Below are positions 27,101 to 45,515 of a DNA stretch of 64,000 nucleotides, in pieces. Made by a program: the position numbers and the translations under genes. Within the stretch, counting starts at the first letter, position 1; each line of letters opens with the position of its first letter. Under the pieces are notes generated by a model that had not been told where the DNA came from, ran no database searches, and was given only the letters and a program-made list of their open reading frames with translations. Source of the stretch: a virus; IMG/VR virus record IMGVR_UViG_3300046057_000051; one strand, 5' to 3'.

Positions 27101-27221
27101 AGCCACCATCAGCCACGCGCACCGGCCCGAGAGGGCCGCCGTGGGCAACCAGCGAACACACCCACATTCGCATCGCGGCTTTCGACCACCCACCGGCCCC
27201 GAGAGGGGTGTGGCCCCGGCT

Positions 27222-27614
27222 ATGAACGCCGACAGTCTACCCGTCCCGAGCTTCGGGACTGCGACCGACGACGGAACCGTACAAGAGCGGTCCGGCTACC
27301 ACCAGCCCGGTAACAACGGCCCCGCGACCAAGAGCTGTACGTGTGCCCGCACGACCGAGAAGGGCGCCTACCGTGACGTGCGGGTCGAGTACGACGGCGC
27401 GACCGTCCACTTCTACCACCAGTCGCCGGTGGTCGTCGTGGAGGGCCGCACGCGCCGGCTTGACAGTCACGGCTACCGGACCCGGACCACAAAAGACCGC
27501 ATTAACCGCTACCTTCCCGACGGGTACGAGGTGTACCAGGAGGAGTACGAGTGGTACCTGGAGACGCCGAGCGGCGAGCGGGAGTTCACGGACGGCATGA
27601 CCGTCACGGTCTAA
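27222..27614 (+). CDS. Array ORF 1, hypothetical
   Basis: ATG follows the hairpin motif; FYHQSPVV...GYRTRTTKDRINRY. Confidence 0.8.
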   Translation: MNADSLPVPSFGTATDDGTVQERSGYHQPGNNGPATKSCTCARTTEKGAYRDVRVEYDGATVHFYHQSPVVVVEGRTRRLDSHGYRTRTTKDRINRYLPDGYEVYQEEYEWYLETPSGEREFTDGMTVTV

Positions 27615-27664
27615 CCGTCCCCGCAACCCCCCATATCGGCCCCGAGAGGGGCGTGACTCCAGCG

Positions 27665-27838
27665 ATGAGCGCCAACGACTACGAGGACAGCCTCGCATGC
27701 AAACGGTGTAACGAACCCCGACCACCCGGCCCCGAGCTATGCCCGAGGTGCGAGGACCTACAGGCGGCGCGGACGGCCCCCGGAAACCCGGAGCCGGTCA
27801 TGCACCACAACCCGCCGCACGGCAACACGACCCGGTAG
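27665..27838 (+). CDS. Array ORF 2, Zn-finger micro-protein
   Basis: CKRC...CPRC; ATG 8 nt after GTGA. Confidence 0.75.
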   Translation: MSANDYEDSLACKRCNEPRPPGPELCPRCEDLQAARTAPGNPEPVMHHNPPHGNTTR

Positions 27839-27887
27839 CCGGTCGCCGGCTACCACTCCCGGCCCCGAGAGGGGCGTGACTCCGGCT

Positions 27888-28214
27888 ATGAACGCCAACC
27901 CCACCATCGAACTGGCGGAACCGATAGGGCAACTCGCCGGCGACGACGTGGCCGAGGTCCGCGAGAAGTTCGCGGACGTGGCGGCCGCAATGGCCGAGCG
28001 CCACCCGCCGACGAACCGCAGATTGCTCATCGCCACCGCCGATTACTGGAGCGACGCGGCCGGTCCGAACGACCCAATCGTCCAATCCATCCTGTCCTGG
28101 GTGGTGTACCTCTCGCACGACGACATGAGTCAGTTCGACGCCGGCATGACCGTAGACCAACATCAGGCGTTGCGGAAGCGCCTCGGCGAACTCGGTCTCC
28201 GCGACGACGACTGA
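27888..28214 (+). CDS. Array ORF 3, hypothetical
   Basis: ATG 8 nt after GTGA; acidic helical. Confidence 0.8.
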   Translation: MNANPTIELAEPIGQLAGDDVAEVREKFADVAAAMAERHPPTNRRLLIATADYWSDAAGPNDPIVQSILSWVVYLSHDDMSQFDAGMTVDQHQALRKRLGELGLRDDD

Positions 28215-28293
28215 CCGCGCGGGCACGGCGCCCGCGCCTGCCCCGAAAGGGGCGCGACGCCCGCTCCGGCCCCGAGAGGGGCGTGAGACCGCT

Positions 28294-28554
28294 ATGCGCG
28301 ACATACCCTGCGCCAAGTGTGGCGAACCGTACTCCCTGTACGCGCTCCGGCACGACGTGGCCGAGTGGGACGACCAGCCGGACGACGCGGCGGAGAAGTT
28401 CCAGTCGGGCGACGGCTGCCCCACCTGCGAGTGGGGCGACAAAGCCGGCGACGTGTCGGTGTCGCGGTTCAAGGGGGAAACGGAACTGGAGGCCGAACAC
28501 ATGAAGGGCGTCATGCGGGAGTCCGACGAGGACCCGCTGAAGTACCTGCCCTGA
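28294..28554 (+). CDS. Array ORF 4, Zn-finger protein
   Basis: CAKCGEP...CPTCEWG. Confidence 0.8.
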   Translation: MRDIPCAKCGEPYSLYALRHDVAEWDDQPDDAAEKFQSGDGCPTCEWGDKAGDVSVSRFKGETELEAEHMKGVMRESDEDPLKYLP

Positions 28555-28624
28555 CCGGCGCCGGCGCGACCGCCGGACACCGGCGTTAAGCCGGTTCAGC
28601 CCCGAGAGGGGAGTGACCACCGCT

Positions 28625-29167
28625 ATGAGCGACCAACTCGACACGGACCTCGGCGTCCGCTACACGGAGCGGCCCAAACACCTACCCACCGACCACTCGG
28701 AGTTCGACCCGCCGACCGCGTGGGTGAACTATTGGGACATGAACCCCGTCGCACACGGCGGGAAGTACGTCACCTGGACGGGGCGGGCGTGGCGGGTCGT
28801 AGAGGTGGGTCCGCCGTCCATGTGGGATGAGCCGGAACACATAGTCACGCGGTACAGGTTCCGCCCGGCGGACGTATGGGTTGACCCGAGCGACCCGTGG
28901 ACGGACTTCGCGGACGACATGAAGCGGATACTCCGGTCCCTCGGCGACGAGCATCACCTGCCCGTCGCCCCGCCGTTCCTCGGCAGCGTGACGTACTACG
29001 TGGCCGACCTCACGCACTACCGTAGCGTCCGACACGAAACGTTTGAGATAGACGACGGCGACGTGGACGCCTACTGGTCGCACGTCTCCGGCTACGACGT
29101 TGACCCGTCCGAGGTCCAGAACGTGTCCGAGCGCGACCTGCCGGACGACGCAATCAGCGACGACTGA
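28625..29167 (+). CDS. Array ORF 5, paralog of ORF 6
   Basis: Shares DPSDPWTDFADDMKR.LRS.GDEHHLPV with the next ORF. Confidence 0.85.
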   Translation: MSDQLDTDLGVRYTERPKHLPTDHSEFDPPTAWVNYWDMNPVAHGGKYVTWTGRAWRVVEVGPPSMWDEPEHIVTRYRFRPADVWVDPSDPWTDFADDMKRILRSLGDEHHLPVAPPFLGSVTYYVADLTHYRSVRHETFEIDDGDVDAYWSHVSGYDVDPSEVQNVSERDLPDDAISDD

Positions 29168-29212
29168 CCGCCGTAAGCGGTCCGTCGGCCCCGAGAGGGG
29201 CGTGACCGACCG

Positions 29213-29758
29213 ATGCACGACCAACTCGACACCGACCTATCGGCCCGGTACGAGGAACGGCCCCGGTACGCACCCACCGACCACCCGGCGTTCGACCCGC
29301 CGAGCGCGTGGGTGAACGTCTGGTCCATGTATTGTATCGAGAACGGTGGCACGTTCATCACGTGGGACGACGCCGGCTGGGATGTCGTGGAGGTGACGCC
29401 CCCGGACGCGCACGTGGAGCGTGAACACACCGTCGAACGGTACAGGTTGCGCCCATCGGACGTGTGGGCGGACCCGAGCGACCCGTGGACGGACTTCGCG
29501 GACGACATGAAGCGGGTACTCCGGTCCCGGGGCGACGAGCATCACCTACCCGTCTCCCCGCCGTTCCTCGGCCGTGTGACGTTGCATTACATCAGCGGCC
29601 TCACCGACCACCGGACCGTCCAGCGCAAGACGTTCGAGGTAGACGAGGGCGACATAGACGGTTACTGGTCGCACGTCTCCAGCTACGGCGTGGACTCGTC
29701 CGACGTGCAGGGCGTGGCCGCCGACGCACTACCGGACGACGCCATCACCCGCGACTGA
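29213..29758 (+). CDS. Array ORF 6, paralog of ORF 5
   Basis: Full-length similarity to ORF 5. Confidence 0.85.
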   Translation: MHDQLDTDLSARYEERPRYAPTDHPAFDPPSAWVNVWSMYCIENGGTFITWDDAGWDVVEVTPPDAHVEREHTVERYRLRPSDVWADPSDPWTDFADDMKRVLRSRGDEHHLPVSPPFLGRVTLHYISGLTDHRTVQRKTFEVDEGDIDGYWSHVSSYGVDSSDVQGVAADALPDDAITRD

Positions 29759-29802
29759 CCGCCGTAAGCGGTCGCCGCCCCGAGAGGGGCGTGACCACCG
29801 CT

Positions 29803-30096
29803 ATGGCGCGAGACACACGCGGTTACGACGACGCCGTGGACGAATCCGAAAGCACCCTGCGCGACCCCGAGGACTTCAGCCCCCTCGACGTGCGGTGTAT
29901 CGAGCGGGAGGCGCGGATGAGCGGCCGCCGGACCTACACCTACCTCGTGGTGAACCACGACGCGGGCGAGGTACTCCACGAGGGGAGCCCGGTCCGCCAG
30001 ACCGACGTGGCTCCCTCGGTCATGTCGGAGGCCGCCAAGGCGGAAGGAATCGCCGTCGGGTGGCTCCTCGCCCACCCCGACCACGAGTGGCTATAG
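29803..30096 (+). CDS. Array ORF 7, hypothetical
   Basis: ATG 8 nt after GTGA. Confidence 0.75.
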   Translation: MARDTRGYDDAVDESESTLRDPEDFSPLDVRCIEREARMSGRRTYTYLVVNHDAGEVLHEGSPVRQTDVAPSVMSEAAKAEGIAVGWLLAHPDHEWL

Positions 30097-30180
30097 AGCC
30101 ACCCACCCCGCCGGCGCCGCGCCGACGCCGCCCCGGGAGGGGACCCGCCCTTTGGCCCCGAGAGGGGCGTGACCCCGACG

Positions 30181-30399
30181 ATGAATAGCGAACGACGACG
30201 CGGCACGAGACGGCAGAAGCGGCCGCCCGGCCCGCCCGTGCCGCCGGAGTGTCCCGTCTGCGGGGAGTGCCCCCCGGAGACCGAGACCCACGCGACACGC
30301 CGGGACCCGTGCGGATGGGTAGAGGGCGAAATCAACTGCGCCGACTGCGGGCATACGTTGAAGCGGAACGTGTTGCTCCGCGACCCGGACCGCGTGTAG
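30181..30399 (+). CDS. Array ORF 8, CPxCG Zn-finger protein
   Basis: CPVCG...CADCG. Confidence 0.8.
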   Translation: MNSERRRGTRRQKRPPGPPVPPECPVCGECPPETETHATRRDPCGWVEGEINCADCGHTLKRNVLLRDPDRV

Positions 30400-30438
30400 C
30401 GGTCCCTCGGCGTTCTGCCCCGAGAGGGGCGTGACAGC

Positions 30439-30735
30439 ATGACCGAGGACGACGAACGAGCATACCGGGTCACGGTCGCTATTGACGACGGCGAACTCGC
30501 ACGCGGGAACCCCCGTAAGACGAGCGTCGAGGCGGCCAAAACCTACGTTCGGGAACGGATTGACCGGCGGGTCGATATAGTGGACGCCACTCACGACCAC
30601 CGTCCGTCGTTTACCTACGGCGACACGGTGTGGGTCGTCGGCGTGGAGTTATTCTCCCCCGACGACTCCCCGCTCGACGTGACTCCCGACGAACTCATCG
30701 AGGACGTGGAAGAAATCGCAATGCGGCGGTCGTAA
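30439..30735 (+). CDS. Array ORF 9, hypothetical
   Basis: ATG 4 nt after GTGA. Confidence 0.8.
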   Translation: MTEDDERAYRVTVAIDDGELARGNPRKTSVEAAKTYVRERIDRRVDIVDATHDHRPSFTYGDTVWVVGVELFSPDDSPLDVTPDELIEDVEEIAMRRS

Positions 30736-30780
30736 CAACCACGTCCGCCGCGTTCGGCCCCGAGAGGGGCGTGACCACCG

Positions 30781-31017
30781 ATGGACGCAGCCGACCTCGC
30801 CGACGCAATCGGCAACAGCGTGAACTCCGGCATCGACGTGGACGAGTTCAAAGACGGCATCGACAGCGAACACAACACGCTCCAGCGCGAAGCGTACCGG
30901 CAGGTGTTCAAACCGGGCATGAAGGCGCTGGCCGGCACCGAGTACGTGGACTTTCGCAACGAGCGCGAAGTGGAACTCGCCCGCGAGGTATGCGACAAGA
31001 TGGGCTGGACCTACTAA
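30781..31017 (+). CDS. Array ORF 10, hypothetical
   Basis: ATG 6 nt after GTGA. Confidence 0.8.
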   Translation: MDAADLADAIGNSVNSGIDVDEFKDGIDSEHNTLQREAYRQVFKPGMKALAGTEYVDFRNEREVELAREVCDKMGWTY

Positions 31018-31061
31018 CCCACCCATCCGGCGTTCGGCCCCGAGAGGGGCGAGACTCCGGT

Positions 31062-31538
31062 ATGACGGACCCCTACCCCGAAGCCCGACGACGGGCACGA
31101 CTCGACCGAACCGACCACCAGCGAGCGCGACGGGACCGACGCCGCCAACGGCGCGGTCCCTCGACCAGCCGCATCGAGGCGGCGCTGGAGACGGTCGCAG
31201 ACCACGACATCCCGGGCACGCCGGGGGCCGGCGACCTCCGCGTCCTGAAACACGTCCACGACAGCGAGTGGACGGTCGAGACGCGCGAGGTACGGGACTT
31301 CTCAATCACTCGCGGCGACCCACAGCACGGGGCGCTCCGTAGCGACGACCACGTGGGCCGCTACGAGGTGGCGTTCCCGCTGTTCGAGGCCGACCTCCCG
31401 GGCGTCCCCGAGGCGTGTCCCGAGTGCGGCGGCGAGCGCGGCGTCTACACGTACCGCGCCCACCACCACATAGCGGGCAGTGAGCGCATTGACTGCCTTC
31501 GCTGCGAGCAGCAGCTACACAGCGAGGAGTGGGGCTAA
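31062..31538 (+). CDS. Array ORF 11, protein with a C-terminal Zn finger
   Basis: CPECGG...CLRCE; motif variant ends in GAGA. Confidence 0.8.
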   Translation: MTDPYPEARRRARLDRTDHQRARRDRRRQRRGPSTSRIEAALETVADHDIPGTPGAGDLRVLKHVHDSEWTVETREVRDFSITRGDPQHGALRSDDHVGRYEVAFPLFEADLPGVPEACPECGGERGVYTYRAHHHIAGSERIDCLRCEQQLHSEEWG

Positions 31539-31583
31539 CGCCCCGACCCGCCTCGTTCGGCCCCGAGAGGGGCGTGACCACCG

Positions 31584-31793
31584 ATGAACCCGGACAACCC
31601 GAACGCCTCGACGGACATACTGAGAGTCCCCGACGACCCGGAAGCGATGCTGTTCGTCCCGACCGAGATGGACGCCGAACGTGTCGGGCGGCTCCTGGAC
31701 GAACAGATAACGGCCGACGAGTTCGGGACCGGGGACGACGACGTGTCCCTGTGGTCCGAACTGAAGGCCCAACTCAACAAACAACAGGGCTGA
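31584..31793 (+). CDS. Array ORF 12, hypothetical
   Basis: ATG 6 nt after GTGA. Confidence 0.8.
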   Translation: MNPDNPNASTDILRVPDDPEAMLFVPTEMDAERVGRLLDEQITADEFGTGDDDVSLWSELKAQLNKQQG

Positions 31794-31836
31794 CCGACAG
31801 CCCCACACCGTCGCCCCGAGAGGGGCGTGACCACCG

Positions 31837-32238
31837 ATGAACCCCGACTCCTATTCAGACGCCGAACGGCTACTCGTCGCCGGCGCGTCGCCCGAGTTCG
31901 TCACCGTCATGCTGGCGGACCCGTCCGAGTACCCGGGCGTGGACCGACACAGCATCAGGGACCTCGTCCGCAAGCACGACGACCCCGAACGGGTCGCCGA
32001 CCGCGGCGGCGACTTCGCCGGCAACCTGTGGGACGGCACCGTTGCCGAGGCGTTCTTCCACGCCGACGGGAACAACATCAGGCTCCTGCTGGACACCTTC
32101 GGCCCGGCCTACCTGTGGGCCGCCGGCGTGAGCATCGGCGCGGGGCCAGTCCACTTCCGGCGGATACTGTACGAGAAGACCGAGCGGTACCGCCCGGACA
32201 TGCTTGACGAAATCGGCCCGAAGCCGTCCCACGAATAG
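31837..32238 (+). CDS. Array ORF 13, hypothetical
   Basis: ATG 6 nt after GTGA. Confidence 0.8.
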   Translation: MNPDSYSDAERLLVAGASPEFVTVMLADPSEYPGVDRHSIRDLVRKHDDPERVADRGGDFAGNLWDGTVAEAFFHADGNNIRLLLDTFGPAYLWAAGVSIGAGPVHFRRILYEKTERYRPDMLDEIGPKPSHE

Positions 32239-32283
32239 CCCACAACCCACCCGGTATTTGCCCCGAGAGGGGCGTGACGCCCG

Positions 32284-32670
32284 ATGGCAAGGTACGACGG
32301 AACCGACCTACGCGACGGCATCGACAACGAGGAAGCCCTGGGGATGCCGGACGAGCGACTCCCCCCGGGCTGGACGCGGTTCGACCCCGCCGAGGGTGAG
32401 GCCCACGGCGAGGAGGCGTACATGTTCGCCAACGGCCACCAAGTCCTGCTCGGGGAAACCAGCGACGACAACTGGTTCGTCCTGGCGTACCCCGAACACG
32501 GCATGACGGACCTGATGGGCTACGTCCGCCCGCTGGCGGAAGACTCCCCCGAGGCGGCCGCGCCGCCCGCCGGCGACCGGACCCGTGCGCGGGACTTCGC
32601 CCACGGCTACATGGCCGCTGTCGTCTCCTACGAGGCCGACACCCTCGACTACCCGTTGCACGGCCAGTGA
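32284..32670 (+). CDS. Array ORF 14, hypothetical
   Basis: ATG 6 nt after GTGA. Confidence 0.8.
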   Translation: MARYDGTDLRDGIDNEEALGMPDERLPPGWTRFDPAEGEAHGEEAYMFANGHQVLLGETSDDNWFVLAYPEHGMTDLMGYVRPLAEDSPEAAAPPAGDRTRARDFAHGYMAAVVSYEADTLDYPLHGQ

Positions 32671-32724
32671 CCACCGGGGCGGGCTCCCGCCCGCCTCCGG
32701 CCCCGAGAGGGGCATGATACCGTT

Positions 32725-33138
32725 ATGGAGGAGATACCACAACTCCGAGAAGCCGTCGAGCGCGTCGAGGACAGCGACGAGGCGCTCCGCGAGTGGCTCC
32801 GCGACCGACCGGAAGCCGAGATGCTCACCGGCGTCACGAAACCCCGCTCGTATGGCGGGGCCGGCGTCGGGAACATTACGGTGAAGGTCGCCAAACCCGG
32901 CCGGCCGTGCTACTACACCGTCCGTCGTAGCGGGACGCTGTTCGTGTCGAAAACCCACCCGAACAGCCGGGGCAACGGCGTCCCGGCGCCGGAGGCCAAC
33001 GACGACCTGCTCCGGCGCGCCGTCGAATACTACCCCCGGTTCGTCGTCAGGCTCATCGACGAGGTGAACGCGGCGGCGACCGAGTTCGAGGCGGCACTCC
33101 CCGACGAGGCCGTCCCCGAAATGATGCTAACCGAGTAA
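32725..33138 (+). CDS. Array ORF 15, hypothetical
   Basis: ATG 7 nt after the ATGA variant. Confidence 0.8.
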   Translation: MEEIPQLREAVERVEDSDEALREWLRDRPEAEMLTGVTKPRSYGGAGVGNITVKVAKPGRPCYYTVRRSGTLFVSKTHPNSRGNGVPAPEANDDLLRRAVEYYPRFVVRLIDEVNAAATEFEAALPDEAVPEMMLTE

Positions 33139-33199
33139 CACACCACCCTGCCCCCGCCGGCGGGCGGGGCGGGCTCGCCCCGAGAGGGGCGTGACTGCC

Positions 33200-34144
33200 A
33201 TGACAGGCAACCAGACCACAGACGGCAGTACCGACGAACTCCAGCGACTCGTCCGGGCGTTCGCCGACGCCGCGTTCAACGACCCACCCGAGAAACCCAT
33301 CCCGATGGCGACGGACGACGCCGTGGACGTGGTCCGGTCCCAGTTGACCGAGAACACGGGCAGGCACCTCCTGGATTCCGGCAGTGCCTACGGTCGGCAC
33401 TGGGAGGAAAACCAGGAGAACCCCCCGTGGGAGCGCCCCGAGTGGGACGTGGGCAACGGCTACGTCACCCACAACGTGTCCGACTGGATGGAGCGGGCCT
33501 TCGGCCGCGACCGGACGGCGGTCGCGCTGGAAGCCGCGCTGTACGCCTTCGGTCACACCGACGCCCAGAAGCGCAACGGGTGGCTCTCGTCCTGCGAGGC
33601 GTTCCGCGACCTGTTGTTCGACAACACGCTCGACGTGGTTGACCTCCGCGAGTGGGGCGTCCCCGACGAGTTCACCAGGGACGTTCTCTCGGTCCAGAAC
33701 GACATCCACGGGGCCGACCACGGGTTCACGTTCAACACCTACAACGGGGAGTGTCACTCGCTCTCGCAGGTGCTTCAGGGCGTCGTCCTCGGCGGTCCAT
33801 ACGCCGGGTATGGGTTCGTCCAAGTCCATCAGGGCGCGGACGTTCGCGGCGGCTACACCGGCCCGCGGGCGTACACCAGCGCGATGGGCGGCTGGCTCCC
33901 CCACGAGTTAGAGTTCCGGTGTGACCGCTGCGAGTGGGTCGATTACGAGTCCTGTCTCTACGGGAGCGATGAACTGCTCTACCAGCGGAACATCGACCCG
34001 TTCGAGTTACAGGACGAAGGCCTCATCGACGAGGGCGACGACGCCCACCCGGCGCTGGACGCGGCCTACGACGCCGAACACATCGACGGCGCCGTGTTCC
34101 ACAGGTGCGACGACGGCGGCGTCGGGTACTGCGTGTTCCGCTAA
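33200..34144 (+). CDS. Array ORF 16, hypothetical (314 aa)
   Basis: DSGSAYGRHWE, FNTYNGE, VHQGADVRGGYT motifs suggest a conserved mobile-element family; function unknown. Confidence 0.85.
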   Translation: MTGNQTTDGSTDELQRLVRAFADAAFNDPPEKPIPMATDDAVDVVRSQLTENTGRHLLDSGSAYGRHWEENQENPPWERPEWDVGNGYVTHNVSDWMERAFGRDRTAVALEAALYAFGHTDAQKRNGWLSSCEAFRDLLFDNTLDVVDLREWGVPDEFTRDVLSVQNDIHGADHGFTFNTYNGECHSLSQVLQGVVLGGPYAGYGFVQVHQGADVRGGYTGPRAYTSAMGGWLPHELEFRCDRCEWVDYESCLYGSDELLYQRNIDPFELQDEGLIDEGDDAHPALDAAYDAEHIDGAVFHRCDDGGVGYCVFR

Positions 34145-34194
34145 CCACCGGCGGGCGACCGCCGGCCCCCGGCCCCGAGAGGGGCGTGATTCCC

Positions 34195-34491
34195 GTGCCA
34201 CACCCGACCGAACGACAGCGAGAATTGATGGAACAGGCGTTCCGCAACATGGATTACATCGACCGCGTCTCCGGCGAGTGGAAAGCCGGGGTGATGGGAC
34301 ACCAGACCGACGTGGTGCTTTCGGACGTGGACAAATCCGGCTTCTGGGTCCACGTCGATGACACGACGGAGAACTCCGCGTGGGGGTTCGTGTGTCTCCG
34401 CTCCGGGCGGTTCACCCCTGACATCGAGGTGGGCGACGACGAACTGCTCGCCATCGTCGAGGTGATGCGTTTTCCGCCCGCGGACCTGTAG
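34195..34491 (+). CDS. Array ORF 17, hypothetical (GTG start)
   Basis: GTG 5 nt after GTGA. Confidence 0.75.
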   Translation: MPHPTERQRELMEQAFRNMDYIDRVSGEWKAGVMGHQTDVVLSDVDKSGFWVHVDDTTENSAWGFVCLRSGRFTPDIEVGDDELLAIVEVMRFPPADL

Positions 34492-34534
34492 CCCCCGCCA
34501 CCCACACCAGTGCCCCGAGAGGGGCGTGACCGCG

Positions 34535-35296: not shown

Positions 35297-35349
35297 CGGG
35301 CGCACGCCCGCCGTCGCCCCGGTTCGGCCCCGAGAGGGGCGTGAGACCG

Positions 35350-37470: not shown

Positions 37471-37516
37471 CCGGCGGACACCCGGCCGGCGTCGCCCCGA
37501 GAGGGGCGTGACCACG

Positions 37517-37978
37517 ATGCCACAGGCAACCAACAACGGCGACGACGACAACGGCATCACCCCGTGTTCGTGTAGGGACCCCGAGCCCGGCCCCGACGAC
37601 GCGCCCCGGGAGTGCCCCGGCTGTGGCGGCTACATCATGGGCGCCATCATCGGCGGCGACGTTCATCCCGGTTACTCGTCGCTTGGGAACGGGCAGGCGT
37701 TCTACGACGCGAACGAATACTGGTCGCTGAACACCGGCTCCAGGGGGACCGTGAACTCGGTGGACGAGTACGCCTACTTCCGGGCGTTCGGCGACGCCGA
37801 GGCGGTCCCCCCGCACGACCACTGGAAAGCGCGGCGTCTCGGCACCGAGGCGGTGTCGTTCGACCACGTCGTCCACCCGGACGACGAGGTCGAGACCATC
37901 GTCCAGAGCCGGCGCGTCGAGGACCTGCCGGACGGCCCGACGTACCCCGTCGAGGTGGACGACGTGCCGCGGTCGTAG
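37517..37978 (+). CDS. Array ORF 24, Cys-motif protein
   Basis: CSC...CPGCGG. Confidence 0.8.
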   Translation: MPQATNNGDDDNGITPCSCRDPEPGPDDAPRECPGCGGYIMGAIIGGDVHPGYSSLGNGQAFYDANEYWSLNTGSRGTVNSVDEYAYFRAFGDAEAVPPHDHWKARRLGTEAVSFDHVVHPDDEVETIVQSRRVEDLPDGPTYPVEVDDVPRS

Positions 37979-38020
37979 GCAGACTCAATACTATTCGGCC
38001 CCGAGAGGGGCGTGAGACCG

Positions 38021-38446
38021 ATGAGTTCCGCGCCAGACATGGCGAACGCGAACGAGCTACACAGCACAGTCCTCGCCCGCCTCGACAGCACCGGCGGTGT
38101 CCTGACGGCGCTGCACAACGCGCTGTACGCCGCCGACGAGGCCGGGTTCCACGTCCAGCATGACGAGGACCGCGCCGTGGACCTCGACAACTACCTCGGG
38201 CGGGCGATGGAGGCGGCGGACGACACTGACCCCGACCCGAAGTTGGTGTGTGACCGCGTCGAGTCCGCCCGCCGGCAAGCGACCTATTTCCGAACGGGCC
38301 TCGACGACGACGTGGCGGCGTTCGAGCTACCGGAGTACGTCGATTCCGGCGTGTACGACACGCTCGGGGAGTACGCGCGGTACGTCGAGCAGGACATCCG
38401 TGTCCTCATGCAGTACGCCGAGGCGTGGGCGCACGCGGCCGAATAA
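38021..38446 (+). CDS. Array ORF 25, helical hypothetical protein
   Basis: ATG 5 nt after GTGA. Confidence 0.8.
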   Translation: MSSAPDMANANELHSTVLARLDSTGGVLTALHNALYAADEAGFHVQHDEDRAVDLDNYLGRAMEAADDTDPDPKLVCDRVESARRQATYFRTGLDDDVAAFELPEYVDSGVYDTLGEYARYVEQDIRVLMQYAEAWAHAAE

Positions 38447-38492
38447 CCCCCACGCTCATCCCGGTTCGGCCCCGAGAGGGGCGTGAGACACC

Positions 38493-38867
38493 GTGACGGA
38501 CGCAATCACGCAATCGGAGTACGACGCGGCGGTCGAACCGTTCGTGGAGATGGTTGTCGATGAGGCCGAGGAGATGGTCGAGTCGGGCCATTTCGACTCC
38601 CGGCGGCAGGGCGTCATGGAGATGTGTTCCGAGGAACTCAACTATCACGACTGGTTCGCTCGGAACTACTACGACGGCGCGCTGTACGGCTCCATCGTCG
38701 AACACGCGGACACCGACCCGGCGAGCTATTCTGACTGGCCGGCGCTCATCGAGTCCGACACCCCGGAGGGGACGTTGAAGCGTCTCGCGTTCGTGGTGAT
38801 GGAAGCCGACGTTATGTCGGTGGCTCTCGACCGCGTCGAGGCCGACGCTGACGCCGAGCGCGCGTAG
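38493..38867 (+). CDS. Array ORF 26, hypothetical (GTG start)
   Basis: GTG 6 nt after GTGA. Confidence 0.8.
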   Translation: MTDAITQSEYDAAVEPFVEMVVDEAEEMVESGHFDSRRQGVMEMCSEELNYHDWFARNYYDGALYGSIVEHADTDPASYSDWPALIESDTPEGTLKRLAFVVMEADVMSVALDRVEADADAERA

Positions 38868-38951
38868 CCGGCCCACGGGCCGGCCACACCACGGAGCCGC
38901 ACACACGCGCGCACAGCGGCTCCTGGCAGCCCCGAGAGGGGCGTGGTTCCG

Positions 38952-39359
38952 ATGCAACAGGACAAGCCACCGCTGGAGGACCGTATCGAGGACAGCGACC
39001 TGTCTGCCGAGTACGCGCGGCCGCCGACCGGCGAGTCCGCCAACGGAGCGGACATCTCGGTCGCGCTCCCCGCCCAGTACGGCGATAAACTCACCGTCCA
39101 CTACCCCGACGAGTGCGACGAACCCCACCGGGGCAACCCCGAGGAGTGGCTGTACGGCGGGCTCCGCGGCGAGTCCGTCGTCCTCGTGGCGTGGGACGCC
39201 TACCAGGACAGTCTCGACCGGGCCGACGACGACGAGTTCGTCACGCTGTTCGGGAAAACATGCGAGGGCGTGTTCCGGTTCAACAACCGTATCCGCCGCG
39301 TCGCGGAGACGGTGTGCGTCGAGCGCATCGACAGCCCGGAGTATCTCTCCATCCGATAA
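38952..39359 (+). CDS. Array ORF 27, hypothetical
   Basis: ATG 5 nt after the GTGG variant. Confidence 0.8.
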   Translation: MQQDKPPLEDRIEDSDLSAEYARPPTGESANGADISVALPAQYGDKLTVHYPDECDEPHRGNPEEWLYGGLRGESVVLVAWDAYQDSLDRADDDEFVTLFGKTCEGVFRFNNRIRRVAETVCVERIDSPEYLSIR

Positions 39360-39400
39360 CCAACCCCCGGTTTTCGCCCCGAGAGGGGCGTGACTCCACG

Positions 39401-40135
39401 ATGACAGCCAACACCGCCAACATCGAGGTCGCGGGCTCCGCCGCCGCGAACATCGCCAGGGACCTCCTCAATGGCCTCGGCATCCCGCCGAGCGACATCG
39501 AGGCGGCCGACATCACCGTCGTCGTCAACGGCGACGGCGACACGGAAGTCGCGCTCGTCGCGGACGGCCCGAACGCCGGCGCCATTACCGCCGAGATGTT
39601 CGGTGGCGTCGAGTGGGACGACTACGAGGTCGCGTCCATCGACGCCGACGTGACCGAGCGCGACGAGCCGGCGGAGCCATCGACCGCCGACGACGACACC
39701 AGTTCGAGGCCCGGCAAAAGCGGGTTCCAGCCGCAGGTCACGCCGCTCGCCGGGAAAGTTGACCCGCAGTACGTCGAGTTCCCCGGCGAGCCGCCGGGGC
39801 GTATCCGGGAACACACCCAACTCCACGTCATCGCCGACATCCTCATAAAGTGGTACGCCGATTACGACGCCGATTGGGTCAGCGGCGGCGCGCTCGCCGA
39901 GTATGAGTCGAACCCGCTGTCGGAAACACAGACGCAGAACGGCTCGTCGCGGCTGTTCCGAAACAAGGGACTCGTCGTCCGCCGCCAGCAGCCCGAGGGC
40001 GACGGCCGGAAGTACGAGTACCACCCGACCAAGCAGTTGTCCGAGGAGGCGTCCCGCCTCGGCGAGTATTCGATGCCCGATGTCGAGGAGACGCGCGACA
40101 AACGAACGCCCGACGACGTGGACGACGAACCATAG
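39401..40135 (+). CDS. Array ORF 28, protein with a C-terminal winged-helix-like domain
   Basis: SSRLFRNKGLVVRRQQPEGDGRKYEYHPT resembles a MarR-type wing. Confidence 0.7.
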   Translation: MTANTANIEVAGSAAANIARDLLNGLGIPPSDIEAADITVVVNGDGDTEVALVADGPNAGAITAEMFGGVEWDDYEVASIDADVTERDEPAEPSTADDDTSSRPGKSGFQPQVTPLAGKVDPQYVEFPGEPPGRIREHTQLHVIADILIKWYADYDADWVSGGALAEYESNPLSETQTQNGSSRLFRNKGLVVRRQQPEGDGRKYEYHPTKQLSEEASRLGEYSMPDVEETRDKRTPDDVDDEP

Positions 40136-40180
40136 GGTGGCCCCCACGGGCCACCACGGCCCCGAGAGGGGCGTGAAACG

Positions 40181-40615
40181 ATGGACGAGCCAGACCACGA
40201 ATCCACCATCGAAGCCAGACTCGACGAACTACGCGACAACAGCGGCCAGAGCTACATACTCGCCGGGAGCGCCGCCGAGATACTCCGACCGTTCCGCACC
40301 GACGTGACGCGGGAGTTCGTCGTCGAACACACGCTGTCCGACGCCGATGACGTGGATGTCGAGCCCTCGGACTACAACGGCTTGCTCGCACTCCACGGCG
40401 CCCTGGAAGCCAAACAACGGTCGTCCCGCGAAGCGCGCGGCATCACGAGCGTCCACGCGCACAAGATGCTCGTCACGTACTCGGACGTGTCCGCCATCAT
40501 CGTCGAGGCGCTCGGCGGCGAGCCGAGCGACTACACCGCCGGCGGCCACGGGTTCACGGCCGACGGCCGACACGAGGAGAACGTCGAGGCGATTGTCGAA
40601 CGCCTCGACGAGTAG
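40181..40615 (+). CDS. Array ORF 29, hypothetical
   Basis: ATG 4 nt after GTGA. Confidence 0.8.
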   Translation: MDEPDHESTIEARLDELRDNSGQSYILAGSAAEILRPFRTDVTREFVVEHTLSDADDVDVEPSDYNGLLALHGALEAKQRSSREARGITSVHAHKMLVTYSDVSAIIVEALGGEPSDYTAGGHGFTADGRHEENVEAIVERLDE

Positions 40616-40735
40616 CCCGCAGCGGCGGGCTTCGGCCCCGAAAGGGGCAATCAGGGGTACAGCCAACCAACTACGGGTCACGCCCCTCTTTTCGGTTCGA
40701 GGAGCGCGCCAGCCCCGAGAGGGGCATGACTCCCG

Positions 40736-40870
40736 ATGTACGACGACGACGTTGAAATCATCGAGTGCCGCGAGTGCGGCGCCCAGTTCGACGTAGCGAA
40801 ACAGCGGTATTACGACAATCTCTGTCCACCCTGCAAGGACGAGAACGACCCGGGGGCGCCTGCCGCCTGA
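40736..40870 (+). CDS. Array ORF 30, 44-aa Zn-finger micro-protein
   Basis: MYDDDVEIIECRECGAQFDVAKQRYYDNLCPPCKDENDPGAPAA; below the ORF-track cutoff; follows the motif. Confidence 0.75.
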   Translation: MYDDDVEIIECRECGAQFDVAKQRYYDNLCPPCKDENDPGAPAA

Positions 40871-40914
40871 TAGCCGCCCCCGGATTTTTAGTCCCGAGAG
40901 GGGCAGTGACAGCT

Positions 40915-41226
40915 ATGGACGAGTACGACGACCCAATCCAGTTGGAACTCAGGACCGACCGGGAAGTCGCCGTGTTCATGCACGCGATGGGGCTGGGGTC
41001 GGCGATGCTTATTGACAACAACTTCATCGCCGGCGCCCAGACCGCGTCGAACCTCCAGATACGGCTCGCCACCGCGGCCCCGGAGCGAGCCAAGCGCGCG
41101 CTGGACGACCACGGCGACGGCGGCGTGATGAGCGGTCTCGGCGAAGTGTCGAACGAGGCCGCCGTCGGGCACCTCATCGCGGAGGAGGAGGTAGACCCCG
41201 ACGAGGCGGTCGAAGGGATGCTGTGA
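40915..41226 (+). CDS. Array ORF 31, hypothetical
   Basis: Follows the variant GTCCC-GAGA-GGGGC-AGTGA. Confidence 0.75.
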   Translation: MDEYDDPIQLELRTDREVAVFMHAMGLGSAMLIDNNFIAGAQTASNLQIRLATAAPERAKRALDDHGDGGVMSGLGEVSNEAAVGHLIAEEEVDPDEAVEGML

Positions 41227-41271
41227 CACCCCCCTTTGGCGGTCTCTGCCCCGAGAGGGGCGTGATTGCCG

Positions 41272-41610
41272 ATGGAACGAACGATATACGAGTGCGACTG
41301 GTGTGGCGAACGGTTCGGCGCGAAGAACGACGTTGCTCCCGTCCCGATTCGACGCCGGGTACGTGAGTGGCTCCCGTACCGGGAGTACACGCTCCACTTC
41401 TGCTTCGGGTGTGAGGGCTCGGCGGCAGTGGAACTCAACAACACCGGGTTCAAGCGGTTCCTCGTGAACGAGGGCGACGAGGTCATCGGCTGCGAGTGGA
41501 GCATGCGGGAAATCTACCCGCTCTCGGATGTCCCCGAGGACCGGCTTGCGGACCCGGAGGCACTGGACGCGGCGGTAAACGCGGTCGAGGACGCCCTCAA
41601 TCCCACGTAG
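41272..41610 (+). CDS. Array ORF 32, Zn-finger protein
   Basis: CDWCG...HFCFGC. Confidence 0.8.
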   Translation: MERTIYECDWCGERFGAKNDVAPVPIRRRVREWLPYREYTLHFCFGCEGSAAVELNNTGFKRFLVNEGDEVIGCEWSMREIYPLSDVPEDRLADPEALDAAVNAVEDALNPT

Positions 41611-41656
41611 GACGCCTCGACACCCGGGTTTCGGCCCCGAGAGGGGCGTGATGTTG

Positions 41657-42106
41657 ATGACGGAAGTAACTATTCACAGTGACGAGCGCGTACTGCTCGG
41701 CCCCGACGAGGGCCCGATACTGGCAAGCGAACTCCGCGAGGAACACGCTTGGTACGACGAGCCCGCGTTCGCCGCCACGTACTCGACGGGCCGCGAGTGG
41801 GGGGCCGAGGAGACGGATGATGGCTTCGTCACGGTCCGCACGACGCCGGACCCGACGCTCCACGTCTACCTCGACGACGACGCTGCCTACGTTGCGCTGC
41901 TGGTCGAGAACCGCGACGACATCGTGATGCGGCTGTTCGAGGTCCCGGGCACGTCCGTCATGGATTTCGTGGCGCGGATGACGACGGCAATCGAGGACGG
42001 GTACGACGGTATCGGGAACGTGGAGGTGGCGGTGGCGGACGGCCAGATGGCGCAACTCGGCGACCAGCTACACGGGCAGGTCGAGGACATCCTCGCGGAC
42101 GCATAG
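41657..42106 (+). CDS. Array ORF 33, hypothetical
   Basis: ATG 5 nt after GTGA. Confidence 0.8.
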   Translation: MTEVTIHSDERVLLGPDEGPILASELREEHAWYDEPAFAATYSTGREWGAEETDDGFVTVRTTPDPTLHVYLDDDAAYVALLVENRDDIVMRLFEVPGTSVMDFVARMTTAIEDGYDGIGNVEVAVADGQMAQLGDQLHGQVEDILADA

Positions 42107-42153
42107 GGCGTCCTCGTCCCGTGGGCCTGGCCCCGAGAGGGGCACGATTCCCG

Positions 42154-42426
42154 ATGAACACCGAGATTCCAGTGGATACGCACCACCGCGTCGGCCCGCT
42201 CGTCGATAGGGGCGGGCATGGTCCCGTGACCTGCATCGTCCCCCACCTGTGGGTGTGTCTCGACTGCGGGTACACGGCCGCTTACGAGCGACGGTTCAGT
42301 CATGTGGACTGTGACCGCGCGGAGAACCCCATTAATCAGACGTGGCGTGAGCGTCTCGACAAGTACGTGTTCCCGGATGCGTTCGATGAGCGTGAGGGCG
42401 AGCGCCGCGAGCGCGACTCGCCGTAA
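42154..42426 (+). CDS. Array ORF 34, Cys/His-motif protein
   Basis: HH...CLDCG...C. Confidence 0.75.
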   Translation: MNTEIPVDTHHRVGPLVDRGGHGPVTCIVPHLWVCLDCGYTAAYERRFSHVDCDRAENPINQTWRERLDKYVFPDAFDEREGERRERDSP

Positions 42427-42476
42427 CCCCCTATCGCCCCATTTTAGGGCGCGGGGCGCGTGGGTGGAGGTGAACG

Positions 42477-42797
42477 ATGGTACCGGACGAGACCGACATC
42501 GAGCAGACCGACGAGGAACAGAACCCCACGTTCGGTGTCCCCGGCGTCGAGGTCGTCGATAACGGCCGTATCCGTCTCCCGCCGCGGCAACGCGACCGCT
42601 ACGACATCGAGGAGGACGACGTGGTTGACATCCGCGTCCGGGCGCCCAGCGTGATATTCTGGGCGCTCGACATCGTGGTGGACGGCCGCGGCCGTATCCG
42701 TATCCCGTCGCGGAAACGCGACCTCTACGAAGTCGATGACGGCGACGTAGTGGACATCGACGTGATGATTACCGGCATGACCCACGACGGCGACTAA
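42477..42797 (+). CDS. Tandem AbrB/MazE/SpoVT-family DNA-binding protein (no hairpin motif)
   Basis: Two repeats VDNGRIRLPPRQRDRYDIEEDDVV / VDGRGRIRIPSRKRDLYEVDDGDVV; canonical GGAGGTGA SD. Confidence 0.85.
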   Translation: MVPDETDIEQTDEEQNPTFGVPGVEVVDNGRIRLPPRQRDRYDIEEDDVVDIRVRAPSVIFWALDIVVDGRGRIRIPSRKRDLYEVDDGDVVDIDVMITGMTHDGD

Positions 42798-42869
42798 CCC
42801 CGGCGTGGCCGCCGGCCCCCCAGCCCCGGGAGGGGCACCACCCGCCCCGAGAGGGGACTGTACCCACGA

Positions 42870-44186
42870 ATGACGACCAACACCCCACCATCGACGATGG
42901 ACGGCCTGCTCGCGCTCTCCAAAGGGGAGGCGCTGGAGATAGAGGCGTTGTGCTGGCGTGGCGACCTCTCCATCAAGCGAGTCACCAAACACATGGTCCG
43001 CGTCCTCGCCGACGAGATGACGTGGGACGGCCGCGAGAACAGCCAGTCGCTCCGCGGCGTCTGGTACAGCGGCGTCAAACAAGTGTACCAACACCTGTTC
43101 CCCGAGAAGTGGGCAGACGACCACTACACGGAGCCGCCGTCGCGCCGCTTCTCACAGTCGCTCTCCGAATACACCTCCGAACTGGTGAAGGAGGGCGAAC
43201 TCACGTATCGGGACATCAACGTCGTGGACGACTCCCGCGACCGGGAGATACTCGGCACCGACGCCGTCGAACACGACAAAATCCTGTTCGTGGAGAAGCG
43301 CGCGAAATACCGACAGTTAGCCCCTATCAGCGACGTGCTGGAAGTGTCGCTCGTGTCGGGCGGCGGCTGGCAGGCGACGGCGCTCATCGAGGACCTCGCC
43401 AACGTCCTCGACCCGACCAACACGTACACCATCTTCATCCTCACGGACTTCGACCCCACGGGCTACCGTATCGCCGAGGACTTCCAGTCGCGCGCCGAAA
43501 CCCTCGGGGTGAACGTCGAGGGCGTCGAGCGCATCGGCATCGAGCCCGAACAGGTCACGACGGAAGTCGCCGAGGCCGAACGGTTCGAGGTGCCCGTCGA
43601 GAGCGATTACGACGAACGCTGGCTCGACACCCACGGCATCGAGGACGACCACGACGACCCCCGGTACGGGTTGGAACTGGAAGCCATCGGCGGCCGCGAC
43701 TCTGCCGCCCAGGACTTCCGGCGCGTCGTCGTCGAAGCCCTCGACCCCCATTTGCGGAAGCGGCGTCGGCGGTCGCGGGACCTCAACATCGAGACGGCGA
43801 ACGTCGTCGGCCGCGGCGTGGACGACCTCGTCGATGACATGACCGAGCAGTTGACCGCGGCGCTCAAAGAGTACGCCATCGCCGAGTTGCGCGACCACGA
43901 CGCCGTCGAGCGGTTGACCTACCGTCGCGGGGACGACACCGTGACGGCGGCCGTGGACCTTGCGGAGCGCGAGGGCGGTGACGACGACCGTATCCCCCAC
44001 CCGCTGGCGTGGGGCACCTACTCGTCGGCGGCCATCGACCCGGACACGACGGAGTCGGGCGACATCGTGTCGCCGCGGCCGCCGCGCGACGAACAGGTCC
44101 GCCGCCTCCAGCGGCAGCTTGCGGCAGAGATGGACGACCCCGACGGCGACATCGACGTAACGGACCTGTTGGACCTCGACGTGTAA
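42870..44186 (+). CDS. Topoisomerase VI subunit A/Spo11-like TOPRIM protein
   Basis: LRGVWY (candidate catalytic Tyr region), LFVEKR, SGGG, LTDFDPTG (DxD), VERIGI, LELEAI. Confidence 0.75.
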   Translation: MTTNTPPSTMDGLLALSKGEALEIEALCWRGDLSIKRVTKHMVRVLADEMTWDGRENSQSLRGVWYSGVKQVYQHLFPEKWADDHYTEPPSRRFSQSLSEYTSELVKEGELTYRDINVVDDSRDREILGTDAVEHDKILFVEKRAKYRQLAPISDVLEVSLVSGGGWQATALIEDLANVLDPTNTYTIFILTDFDPTGYRIAEDFQSRAETLGVNVEGVERIGIEPEQVTTEVAEAERFEVPVESDYDERWLDTHGIEDDHDDPRYGLELEAIGGRDSAAQDFRRVVVEALDPHLRKRRRRSRDLNIETANVVGRGVDDLVDDMTEQLTAALKEYAIAELRDHDAVERLTYRRGDDTVTAAVDLAEREGGDDDRIPHPLAWGTYSSAAIDPDTTESGDIVSPRPPRDEQVRRLQRQLAAEMDDPDGDIDVTDLLDLDV

Positions 44187-44294
44187 CGCGCCCACAGTCG
44201 TTTTCCCGCCCCGAGAGGGGCCGACGCTTACTCATACGTGGAGTGACGCGCCCGGTACTGCTTAGTTCTACGGCCCCGAGAGGGGCGTGAGTCG

Positions 44295-44660
44295 ATGGCT
44301 CAGGCACTATTATCGGAAAGCGACGACGCGGTACCGCTTCATCTGGACATCGCCCGTAGCTTCCGGCGGCGGACGACTATCGACAGCGTGCTGACGTTGT
44401 CGTATGTGTCGAACGGCGTGGCGGCGGGGACGCCGACGGCGGGCGTCTATGCCCGGACGATGGGGGATGGGCTCGACGACGCCGCGGTGTTGCTCGTCGA
44501 GGGCCCCGACGTGGAGGAGTCGGCGTACTGGATGCATACCAGGGACATCCAGCCCGTTGCGGAGTTGCTCCTCAGCGACGAGTACGTCGTGACGTACACG
44601 GCGAGTCCGCACGTCGAGCCCGGCGCCTACACGGTCCACGTCACGGTGGACGAGGAGTAG
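44295..44660 (+). CDS. Array ORF 37, hypothetical
   Basis: ATG 4 nt after GTGA. Confidence 0.75.
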   Translation: MAQALLSESDDAVPLHLDIARSFRRRTTIDSVLTLSYVSNGVAAGTPTAGVYARTMGDGLDDAAVLLVEGPDVEESAYWMHTRDIQPVAELLLSDEYVVTYTASPHVEPGAYTVHVTVDEE

Positions 44661-44670
44661 CTGGTGGGCG

Positions 44671-44976
44671 ATGACGAACTTGTTCATCCCGCCGGAGTTA
44701 CTCCCCGACGAGTGGGCGTACAGGGACGCTGACCCGGACGCGGGCGTGACGATGTATCGTGACGAGTCCGGGCAGCGCGAGTTGGTGTGCGTCCGGGAGG
44801 GGTTGAACGAGTACGATGTGGCGCTGGAGGCTACGGGCGGCCACCCGGCGTTCTCGGCGCGCACGGAGTTCTTCGCGGCCGAGGGCGTCCCGTTCCATAC
44901 GGCGGTTGCGGTGGCGGTCGGGATGCTGCATGGGGCGGTGTGGTTCGAGCGGATTCATCTCGACGCCTCCGGGTGA
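44671..44976 (+). CDS. Array ORF 38, hypothetical (no hairpin motif)
   Basis: 10 nt downstream of the previous stop. Confidence 0.7.
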   Translation: MTNLFIPPELLPDEWAYRDADPDAGVTMYRDESGQRELVCVREGLNEYDVALEATGGHPAFSARTEFFAAEGVPFHTAVAVAVGMLHGAVWFERIHLDASG

Positions 44977-45030
44977 CTGCCGGGACGGCCCGGCGGTCGC
45001 CGGGGCTGCCCCGAGAGGGGCGTGGTTCCG

Positions 45031-45447
45031 ATGGAAACCGAAGGACGGTACGACTGTGCGACCTGTGGCGAACCGCTCAACATCGTCGGCATCCTCCGCC
45101 ACGATTGCGACCGCGTCCTGTCGGCGGCGAACATCACACCCGGCGAGCAGGACACGCTGCTGTACGTCGAGACGCGGGTCGTGGAACACGAGGGTGTCCT
45201 GAACCTCTGGCAGATGAACTACGACGACCAGCAGAACCTCAAGTTGTCCGGTGCCGCCGGCATCCTCGACGTGAGCGAGGACCCGAATCCCTACGAGGAC
45301 GAAATGTGCGTCGAGGCGTTCACCGAGCGGGCGTGGGACCTCGCCGGTGAGTCCCGGTGGCTCCGTGCCGCGCGGAACATGGATGGTGACGTGGTGGACG
45401 CGGATGTGCTGGCTGACCGGCTGGGGGTGGCGTCCGTCCCGCCGTAG
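45031..45447 (+). CDS. Array ORF 39, protein with N-terminal Cys/His motif
   Basis: CATCGEP...HDC; last motif-associated ORF. Confidence 0.8.
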   Translation: METEGRYDCATCGEPLNIVGILRHDCDRVLSAANITPGEQDTLLYVETRVVEHEGVLNLWQMNYDDQQNLKLSGAAGILDVSEDPNPYEDEMCVEAFTERAWDLAGESRWLRAARNMDGDVVDADVLADRLGVASVPP

Positions 45448-45515
45448 CTGGATTCCCGTGGTTTGGGGTCGAGAGGCCCGGCGGTCGCGGTAATCCTCGC
45501 GCGTAGTGTGAGCGG

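Follow-up and report, generated by a model that had tools for sequence, protein, structure and literature searches.

For fifteen years, repeated words have been seen in front of phage genes without a mechanism being assigned to them; examples are the start-associated sequences (SAS) of Cluster K mycobacteriophages, the promoter-early stem-loops (PeSLs) of T4-like phages and the intergenic motif of the halovirus HGTV-1. The function of the SAS and of their extended form (ESAS) was left unexplained by Pope et al. (2011, PMC3203893). Here, a stretch of 64,000 nucleotides of the IMG/VR virus record IMGVR_UViG_3300046057_000051 was analyzed (referred to as the window), which is a segment of an 82-kb haloarchaeal contig from a halite metagenome. 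Searches for sequencing runs gave only DNA runs of one halite metagenome study and none of RNA; a single DNA run contains all sampled words of the window. It contains 44 copies of a short G+C-rich hairpin, which punctuate a block of small genes of about 18 kb and mostly run into a sequence resembling a Shine-Dalgarno (SD) element. The best reading of these hairpins, to which we give about an even chance, is that they form a translation-start tag for each cistron of a long mRNA, and that these tags are targeted by an antisense element. A role at the RNA level is suggested since related elements keep the fold while its letters change, and keep one matching antisense copy.

The tag resembles the Cluster K SAS in many respects: both are short words located a few bases upstream of many non-structural gene starts, occur in one orientation and in one genome arm, contain an SD core, prefer ATG starts, possess extra conserved bases that cannot pair with the rRNA, and are accompanied by a single reverse copy per genome. 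The SAS, however, are 13-bp non-hairpin words present in 11 to 19 copies in phages of a bacterial host, and the inverted repeats of the ESAS, in which RNA-type compensation is missing, were taken for DNA sites, whereas the window contains 44 archaeal copies of a covarying hairpin fused to an SD sequence. Furthermore, the reverse copy lies in a conserved non-coding unit, unlike that of the SAS. The tag is a behavioral analogue of the SAS and not a member of that class; there is no relation in sequence or host.

A repeated stem-loop in front of most genes of an orphan region and the shuffling of gene cassettes at these repeats are shared with the HGTV-1 motif and the T4 PeSLs (PMC3950731, PMC2839356, PMC4122927). 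In HGTV-1 (KC292026, 128-143.8 kb, minus strand; L032 in our set), the motif consists of TTTTTATA, a 9-bp inverted repeat (ACTCCTCGTG/CACGAGGAGT) and TATATAAA, followed by CGAAAGACTTAATAC about 25 nt before each ATG. It is A+T-rich, has a length of about 110 nt, is located in spacers of 110-180 nt with two or three canonical TATA boxes and carries its 9-bp hairpin about 70 nt upstream, whereas the motif of the window is G+C-rich, 18-30 nt long, usually lacks a TATA box, and its hairpin abuts the SD-like GUGA. The repeats of classes I and II in halovirus HF2 (PMC8707807) are likewise intergenic repeats of a haloarchaeal virus that control gene blocks, with long primary transcripts and a proposed processing; they differ in copy number and length (7 + 2 copies of 58 and 29 bp), are A+T-rich, have been proven to be active as TATA-dependent promoters and are not present at a rate of one per gene. 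A precedent for antisense control is the Tant/T1 system of halovirus phiH1, for which the account cited in PMC8707807 describes a virus-encoded antisense RNA that pairs with early mRNA, the duplex being removed by a host RNase. This is a true cis-antisense RNA against one mRNA, whereas a short seed on the same strand, matching the tag at about 37 starts, is proposed here.

A search of the window for GCCCCGAGAGGGGC with up to two mismatches yielded 45 matches, 44 of which are on the + strand between 27124 and 45021; shuffled windows gave 2.09 matches on average and seven at most, and none of 100 shuffles reached 45. Exact copies account for 33. The match at 33435 (GAGT loop, GGGAC arm) was rejected, being located inside gene 16 and having a counterpart in the relative L021 that is also coding, and the match at 55980 was dismissed as a chance match. 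With the copy at 45466 added, there are 44 real copies between 27124 and 45479, all on the sense strand, and a sequence-only motif model detected no further copy elsewhere in the window. The consensus GCCCC-GNRA-GGGGC comprises 14 nt and folds into a 5-bp stem with an energy of about -10 kcal/mol. An earlier note on this DNA had listed loop variants that all conform to GNRA, which are present as described (GAGA in 40 copies, GAAA at 28240 and 40635, GGGA at 30130 and 42823), and three stem variants that keep their pairing, each of which was found again: GGCCC/GGGCC at 27124, GTCCC/GGGGC with a U.G pair at 40891 and GGGTC/GGCCC at 45466. In addition, a 3' arm GGGGT forms a G.U pair at 27196, and GGGGA breaks the terminal pair at 28599, 30130 and 42844. 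A copy ends 8-12 nt 5' of the start codon in 37 of the 39 + strand genes (34 ATG, three GTG), and GTGA directly follows the hairpin in 28 of these 37 gene-associated copies; seven copies (27124, 28240, 30130, 40635, 42823, 44208 and 45466) are gene-less. The features of the array are as follows.

27093 to 27100, + strand: GATATAAG, the only canonical TATA-like box at the array head and predicted promoter of the block; its center lies 27-28 nt upstream of hairpin 27124
27124 to 27137, + strand: first hairpin, gene-less, GGCCC-GAGA-GGGCC (pair 2 flipped from C-G to G-C)
27222 to 45447, + strand: array of 39 small genes on the same strand, encoding 44-438 amino acids; nearly all lack a Pfam family
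27196 to 45021, + strand: 37 gene-associated copies GCCCC-GAGA-GGGGC, mostly followed by GTGA, starting at 27196, 27639, 27862, 28269, 28599, 29188, 29777, 30155, 30417, 30757, 31037, 31560, 31813, 32260, 32700, 33177, 34172, 34512, 35327, 35750, 36157, 36635, 37216, 37494, 37998, 38469, 38929, 39376, 40159, 40712, 40891, 41248, 41634, 42130, 42844, 44273 and 45008
28240 to 28253, + strand: extra gene-less hairpin with GAAA loop, 15 nt 5' of the regular copy at 28269
30130 to 30143, + strand: additional gene-less copy with a GGGA loop and a terminal G.A; the copy at 30155 lies downstream of it
40635 to 40648, + strand: GAAA-loop hairpin opening a gene-less non-coding unit; the same loop is found in L021 (7238), L023 (11515) and L029 (5289)
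42823 to 42836, + strand: additional gene-less copy whose loop is GGGA; the copy at 42844 lies downstream of it
44208 to 44221, + strand: exact copy that has neither a gene nor GTGA behind it, located in the spacer of 108 nt that precedes gene 37; the synteny with L021 breaks here
45466 to 45479, + strand: hairpin GGGTC-GAGA-GGCCC that closes the array behind its last gene; two of the pairs are flipped and one is U.G

Within the window, 98.6% of the pair cells are standard, two pairs have changed on both sides, and the covariation score was reached by none of 500 shuffles. As this signal rests on three variant copies, 33 copies being identical, relatives were sought. The TOPRIM protein encoded by gene 36 has 92 metagenomic homologs; the contigs of ten of these were compared, and eight of them show repeated start-proximal hairpins in their spacers. 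The relatives carry the following hairpins (percentages are identities of the TOPRIM protein to that of the window).

L021 (82%): motif identical to that of the window
L023 (48%): window motif, with some loops GAGUA (three times) and GAGC (once)
L029 (49%): window motif, with ATTTTTG before and CUGAUACC after it
L022 (52%): 15-nt form GCCCC-GAGAC/GAGAU-GGGGC, the GAGAC/GAGAU loop being present in 25 of 29 copies
L028 (53%): GGGCC-UAAC-GGCCC, with loops UAAC, AAAC and AAGC
L025 (49%): CCCGGC-(4-7 nt)-GCCGGG, then GUUGAUAGC
L030 (62%): several hairpin forms
L026 and L027 (38-39%): genes mostly overlapping, other repeated hairpins in a few spacers

The repeated words of the last two are GGATGCG..CGCATCC followed by CGTCAGCGCCCGCGACAGCCGGCG in L026 and GGGACGGTCGGC..CACGCCCG..CGTGTCCGTCAGCAGCACG in L027. 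The TOPRIM protein itself had no match in the phage, plasmid or IMG/VR collections. It was annotated once as an RNase M5-type processing enzyme, an assignment that was dropped since its matches are Toprim domains of the Topo VI-A/Spo11 type. A homolog in Haladaptatus halobius was considered as a cultured model and rejected, as it is located in an ordinary chromosomal context without an array.

A set of 143 intergenic GCCCC-type copies was drawn from five related elements, coding and intergenic copies being separated by the called genes. In this set, all nine stem changes that affect both sides are still paired, including GGCCC/GGGCC, GCCCG/CGGGC, GUCCC/GGGAC and CCCCC/GGGGG. One-sided stem changes gave G.U nine times and A.C once or twice, and of three apparently broken internal pairs, two refold in a shifted register. 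Chance matches inside genes, which were collected at equal stringency as a control, contain two paired and 47 broken one-sided changes (Fisher p = 2.5e-4). Two caveats apply to these counts: a transcription-linked C-to-T bias could add some G.U pairs, and template switching can homogenize short palindromes. The pair at 40891 is U.G in the window and U-A in the L021 ortholog, which is the classical way in which RNA helices evolve. Single genomes contain loops of different lengths (L023, 4 or 5 nt; L025, 4-7 nt), and L025, L028 and L030 possess other hairpins at the equivalent site with compensatory changes of their own. Selection for pairing on the sense strand is thus supported by the sequence comparison, and the compensatory changes together with the variable loop length within genomes point to a single-stranded fold of the sense strand and argue against an operator for a dimeric DNA-binding protein.

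The earlier note had proposed that the repeat is conserved as an RNA structure with a GNRA tetraloop. The pairing holds up, within and between genomes, through compensatory and G.U changes; the loop does not. The GNRA loop is not conserved across the family, as L022, L025 and L028 use other loops, and the GAGAC/GAGAU loop of L022 can alternatively be taken for an AGA triloop that is closed by a sixth pair, G-C or G.U. The loop letters track the antisense copy of each lineage rather than a GNRA rule.

This antisense copy, the anti-motif, is situated on the same strand as the tags in the gene-less spacer 40616-40735, within a non-coding unit at 40635-40711, and was found in seven of the eight array-bearing elements; it was not found in the 21 kb sampled of L025. 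The units are listed below; those of L029 were identified by eye.

40675 to 40689, + strand: anti-motif GGGTCACGCCCCTCT, the exact reverse complement of the loop AGA, the 3' arm and GTGACCC, followed by a T-run (to 40692)
L021, 7219-7316: homologous gene-less unit
L022, 9530-9632: homologous gene-less unit
L023, 2126-2234 and 11491-11583: homologous gene-less units
L028, about 2170-2260: homologous gene-less unit
L029, 2696-2760 and 5284-5400: homologous gene-less units
L030, about 5305-5450: homologous gene-less unit

Each unit consists of a variant hairpin, a C+A-rich linker (..CAACCAAC..), the seed, and a T-run or a terminator-like hairpin. The opening hairpin, which has a GAAA loop or a GGCCC/GGGCC stem, is not matched by the seed of its own unit; the GGCCC/GGGCC variant heads non-coding units of L022, L023 and L029 and is also the form of hairpin 27124. 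The seeds follow their lineages: TCACGCCCCGTCTC in L022 fits the extra loop base of that lineage, GTCACGGGCCGT in L028 fits its different stem, and L030 contains TGTGCTCACCCC. Duplex energies are best for a seed with the start regions of its own lineage, for instance -44.8 kcal/mol in L022 compared with about -30 kcal/mol with other lineages, and an exact match of 12 nt is expected by chance about 0.001 times per 20 kb (an estimate). When seven units were aligned, GTCACGCCCC did not vary among them, and it has no pairing partner in their consensus fold. The unit is a candidate small RNA gene without an Rfam match, and the covarying anti-motif is the strongest hint that the tag is read by base pairing. 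The anti-motif could instead be a reversed DNA site of a sequence-specific protein, and Cluster K phages have one reverse SAS as well; however, this would not explain why only the loop, the 3' arm and the SD half are copied. The proposal of the earlier note that the element could switch translation of the whole block gains plausibility because this conserved antisense copy exists.

The fusion of the hairpin to an SD-like sequence can be judged against what is known for haloarchaea, in which the SD sequence (A)GGAGGUGA is enriched 3-7 nt before distal operon genes and is not used in 5' untranslated regions (PMC3986360; PMC2194725). The claim that the 3' stem strand overlaps a sequence able to pair with the haloarchaeal anti-SD is borne out: eight of the nine positions of GGGGCGUGA pair with the 16S rRNA 3' end (two wobbles and one C.C mismatch), and the end of GUGA is 4-8 nt away from the start codon, a canonical distance. 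The duplex has an energy of about -15.7 kcal/mol, computed with 3'-end letters that we presume, though they may differ, to be those of the host. The 5' arm GCCCC of the GCCCC-type and the corresponding arm of the L025-type hairpins would thus mimic the anti-SD and keep the G-rich SD half sequestered. Gene 35 (42427-42797) is one of the two array genes without a hairpin and the only one with a weak MazE/AbrB-type match in relatives.

42466 to 42473, + strand: perfect 8-nt Shine-Dalgarno sequence GGAGGTGA, 3 nt before the ATG of the hairpin-less gene 35

Upstream of gene 35, CATTTTAG is located at a distance of 37 nt and is kept in both the window and L021, whereas its SD is not kept; gene 35 is probably its own transcription unit.

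Taken together, the following scheme may be proposed. The TATA box at 27093 would drive transcription of the 18-kb block, mainly into long sense RNA, whose start is predicted at the first hairpin, as judged from the usual TATA-to-start distance in haloarchaea. Before almost every cistron, this RNA would fold into the 5-bp G+C hairpin of about -10 kcal/mol, whose 3' arm GGGGC together with GUGA would represent an interrupted SD sequence at a distance of 4-8 nt to the start. By mimicking the anti-SD, the 5' arm would hold the G-rich SD half in a local fold and leave GUGA exposed. About 37 unrelated and freely shuffled orphan genes would thereby receive one uniform ribosome entry site; for internal cistrons, the SD sequence is of importance in haloarchaea. 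The unpaired seed of unit 40635-40711 is complementary to each copy from the loop through the 3' arm to GUGA. It could invade the hairpins and thereby cover the starts all together, or the duplexes of seed and tag could serve as RNase targets; either way, it would act as a block-wide off switch. The sequences show the anatomy of the array, the selection for pairing, the complementarity of an SD type and the covarying antisense copy, whereas we infer polycistronic transcription, the direction of the regulation and any role of the hairpin in processing or in stabilizing 5' ends.

Several observations weigh against this scheme, and some of them favor promoters instead. Every lineage has a T-rich box 1-3 nt 5' of the hairpin, in which T makes up 25-46% in the window, 47-68% in L021 and up to 88% in L022 and which reaches T5 in L029 (T4-T5 occur in both ATTTTTG of L029 and TTTTCCA of L022). 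The box, which is weak in the window, is centered 27-31 nt upstream of the ATG in each of the five GCCCC-type elements; a leaderless mRNA would have its TATA box there, and this is the main support for the promoter reading. In L029, T5 is found in nearly every spacer and should terminate the archaeal polymerase, thus ending upstream transcripts and disfavoring one long transcript in that element. Published intergenic repeats of haloviruses are promoters, as measured for those of HF2 (PMC8707807), and the HGTV-1 motif, with its TATA box and inverted repeat in front of the open reading frames (ORFs), was read as a promoter plus stem-loop (PMC3950731), an arrangement that was also seen directly in the HGTV-1 sequence. 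Furthermore, the terminal pair of the hairpin is loose, with 11 breaks in the 143 copies; many copies are identical, so that there are few independent events, and the support consists of pair counts. Sequestration of the SD is not universal either, since the 3' arm GGCCC of L028 is not SD-like. The hairpin could belong to a promoter cassette that acts as DNA, like the T4 PeSLs and the HGTV-1 motif, and gives each spacer its own promoter and leaderless mRNA. The T-box would then serve as a weak TATA box and might in addition terminate the preceding gene. The G+C palindrome, situated between TATA and start site, would be a foldable spacer or an operator for a factor of the host or the element, and one regulator could silence the block. 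The conservation of CATTTTAG at -37 of gene 35, whose SD is not conserved, fits such a cassette. However, most copies in the window and in L023 have three or fewer A/T in any upstream hexamer, and about 40% lack any T-run. Within the array of the window, a TATA-like hexamer occurs in five spacers only (before genes 14, 25, 31, 35 and 37) and T5 only once, and there is in general no A+T peak about 27 nt upstream of the hairpins, for which reason per-gene promoters with a start at the hairpin were rejected, except at the array head. The per-gene promoters of HGTV-1 look different, with an A+T-rich B recognition element (BRE)/TATA sequence CGAAAGACTTAATAC, 110-180-nt spacers and a hairpin about 70 nt upstream. 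Promoters would also leave unexplained the compensatory stems that tolerate G.U, the loops of 4-7 nt in one genome, the GUGA at SD spacing and the same-strand antisense copy. On balance, the promoter cassette is rather unlikely, yet it is the main rival of the RNA reading, and a dual-mode cassette, with a weak promoter or terminator in the DNA and a hairpin and SD on read-through RNA, would reconcile the data.

Traces of recombination are seen at the hairpins. Between the window and L021 (compared over 31963-45368), motif copies lie at a distance of 0-14 nt from about 14 ends of homology blocks, L021 lacks genes 37-38, precisely the stretch between copies 44208 and 45008, and in relatives, whole genes are replaced or missing between copies while the hairpin punctuation is kept. 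The tag thus also marks recombination joints, as PeSLs do. It is improbable, however, that it is mainly a handle by which identical repeats of 18-30 nt mediate gain, loss and exchange of cassettes through homologous or template-switch recombination, with a minor role in expression at most: the breakpoints at motif copies and the differing gene content between kept repeats are in line with this, but the fixed distance of 8-12 nt to the start, the SD-like tail, the paired variants, the lineage-specific hairpins and the antisense copy would be left unexplained. Integron-type parts are also missing, the repeat being 14-18 nt long and 5' of the genes; an integron cassette array, which would also include an IntI-type integrase with attI and Pc, was rejected, as neither attC-like sites (57-141 bp, 3' of cassettes) nor an Rfam or other family match was found in the array. 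The integrase at 23581-24480 is an ordinary Phage_integrase match and the only Pfam integrase match, and the ORF 24933-25640 does not match Pfam Phage_integrase. Least probable of all, and in our view quite remote, is a site resembling boxB of the lambda nut sites, at which an Arg-rich protein of the element would bind the GNRA hairpin on nascent RNA and thereby cause antitermination or recruit or block ribosomes. The earlier note had pointed to this resemblance, which turned out to be confined to shape, that is, a 5-bp G+C-rich stem with a GNRA-type loop; the GAGUA loop of L023 is of the GNRNA type, as is the boxB pentaloop. Lambda nut comprises a boxA, is present at one or two sites after promoters and is bound by the N protein, whereas the window has 44 copies at start codons, no boxA and no identified N homolog; the only word shared upstream of its hairpins is the weak T-rich box, and loops other than GNRA are used in L022, L025 and L028. 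Two genes of the array might still encode a reader of the hairpin, as their products are candidate nucleic-acid binders within an acidic proteome: genes 8 (30181-30399, pI 8.3) and 11 (31062-31538) possess Arg-rich N-terminal stretches (7-8 R/K per 15 residues) and Cys clusters, and homologs of gene 11 are found in L029 (61% identity), L022 and L030. The T-runs before the hairpins of L029 and L022 would make antitermination useful.

The window as a whole looks like a mobile element of a haloarchaeon. Its G+C content is 63-70%, and the encoded proteins are acidic, with isoelectric points (pI) of about 4.1-4.6. The closest relatives of its primase-helicase are encoded on small haloarchaeal plasmids, other genes code for ParA, an integrase, an MCM-like ATPase, a subtilase and a glycosyltransferase, and one protein is about 28% identical to a protein of Halorubrum and Haloarcula tailed viruses; no capsid or terminase was found among the Pfam matches of the window. 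Most intergenic spacers of the array measure 38-54 nt, and most also contain a second hairpin, which is variable, specific to its gene and located before the tag, at the stop codon or just behind it; a minimum free energy of -8 kcal/mol or lower was obtained for 26 of 36 spacers. An identical stop-proximal hairpin, GACCGCCGTAAGCGGTC, follows three different genes (29165-29185, 29760-29776 and 37199-37215). The array block has no near-DNA match in phage or plasmid collections, the exact 18-mer of the motif gave only single chance matches to unrelated bacteria in genome and viral contig collections, and a literature search with the motif letters returned unrelated papers only. Rfam at gathering score gave no match in the whole 64-kb window, with only noise at 40560-40760, and an intron-containing tRNA-Gln proposed at 45639-45788 was found neither by ARAGORN nor by Rfam at gathering score.

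It is tempting, though tentative, to extend the favored reading to a family of haloarchaeal elements, each of which would possess a private start tag and a small RNA with a complementary seed that switches off about 40 unrelated cistrons or marks them for cleavage; tag and seed would co-evolve, and the tag would be the joint between cassettes. In comparison with other repeated words before genes, this archaeal family is unusually readable, as the pairing can be tracked, the hairpin is fused to a ribosome-binding sequence, a complementary partner is conserved and specificities are naturally swapped between lineages. Haloarchaea mostly use leaderless mRNAs. If the RNA reading is true, the tag and its seed would constitute a post-transcriptional switch acting on a whole block, the first to be described for an archaeal mobile element, and would provide direct evidence on the translation of internal cistrons in haloarchaea; if the promoter reading is true, the repeats would represent a G+C-rich, TATA-poor promoter class with a foldable spacer. 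Under either reading, the tag would explain how shuffled orphan genes stay expressible, and it could serve as a portable expression part for Haloferax genetics.

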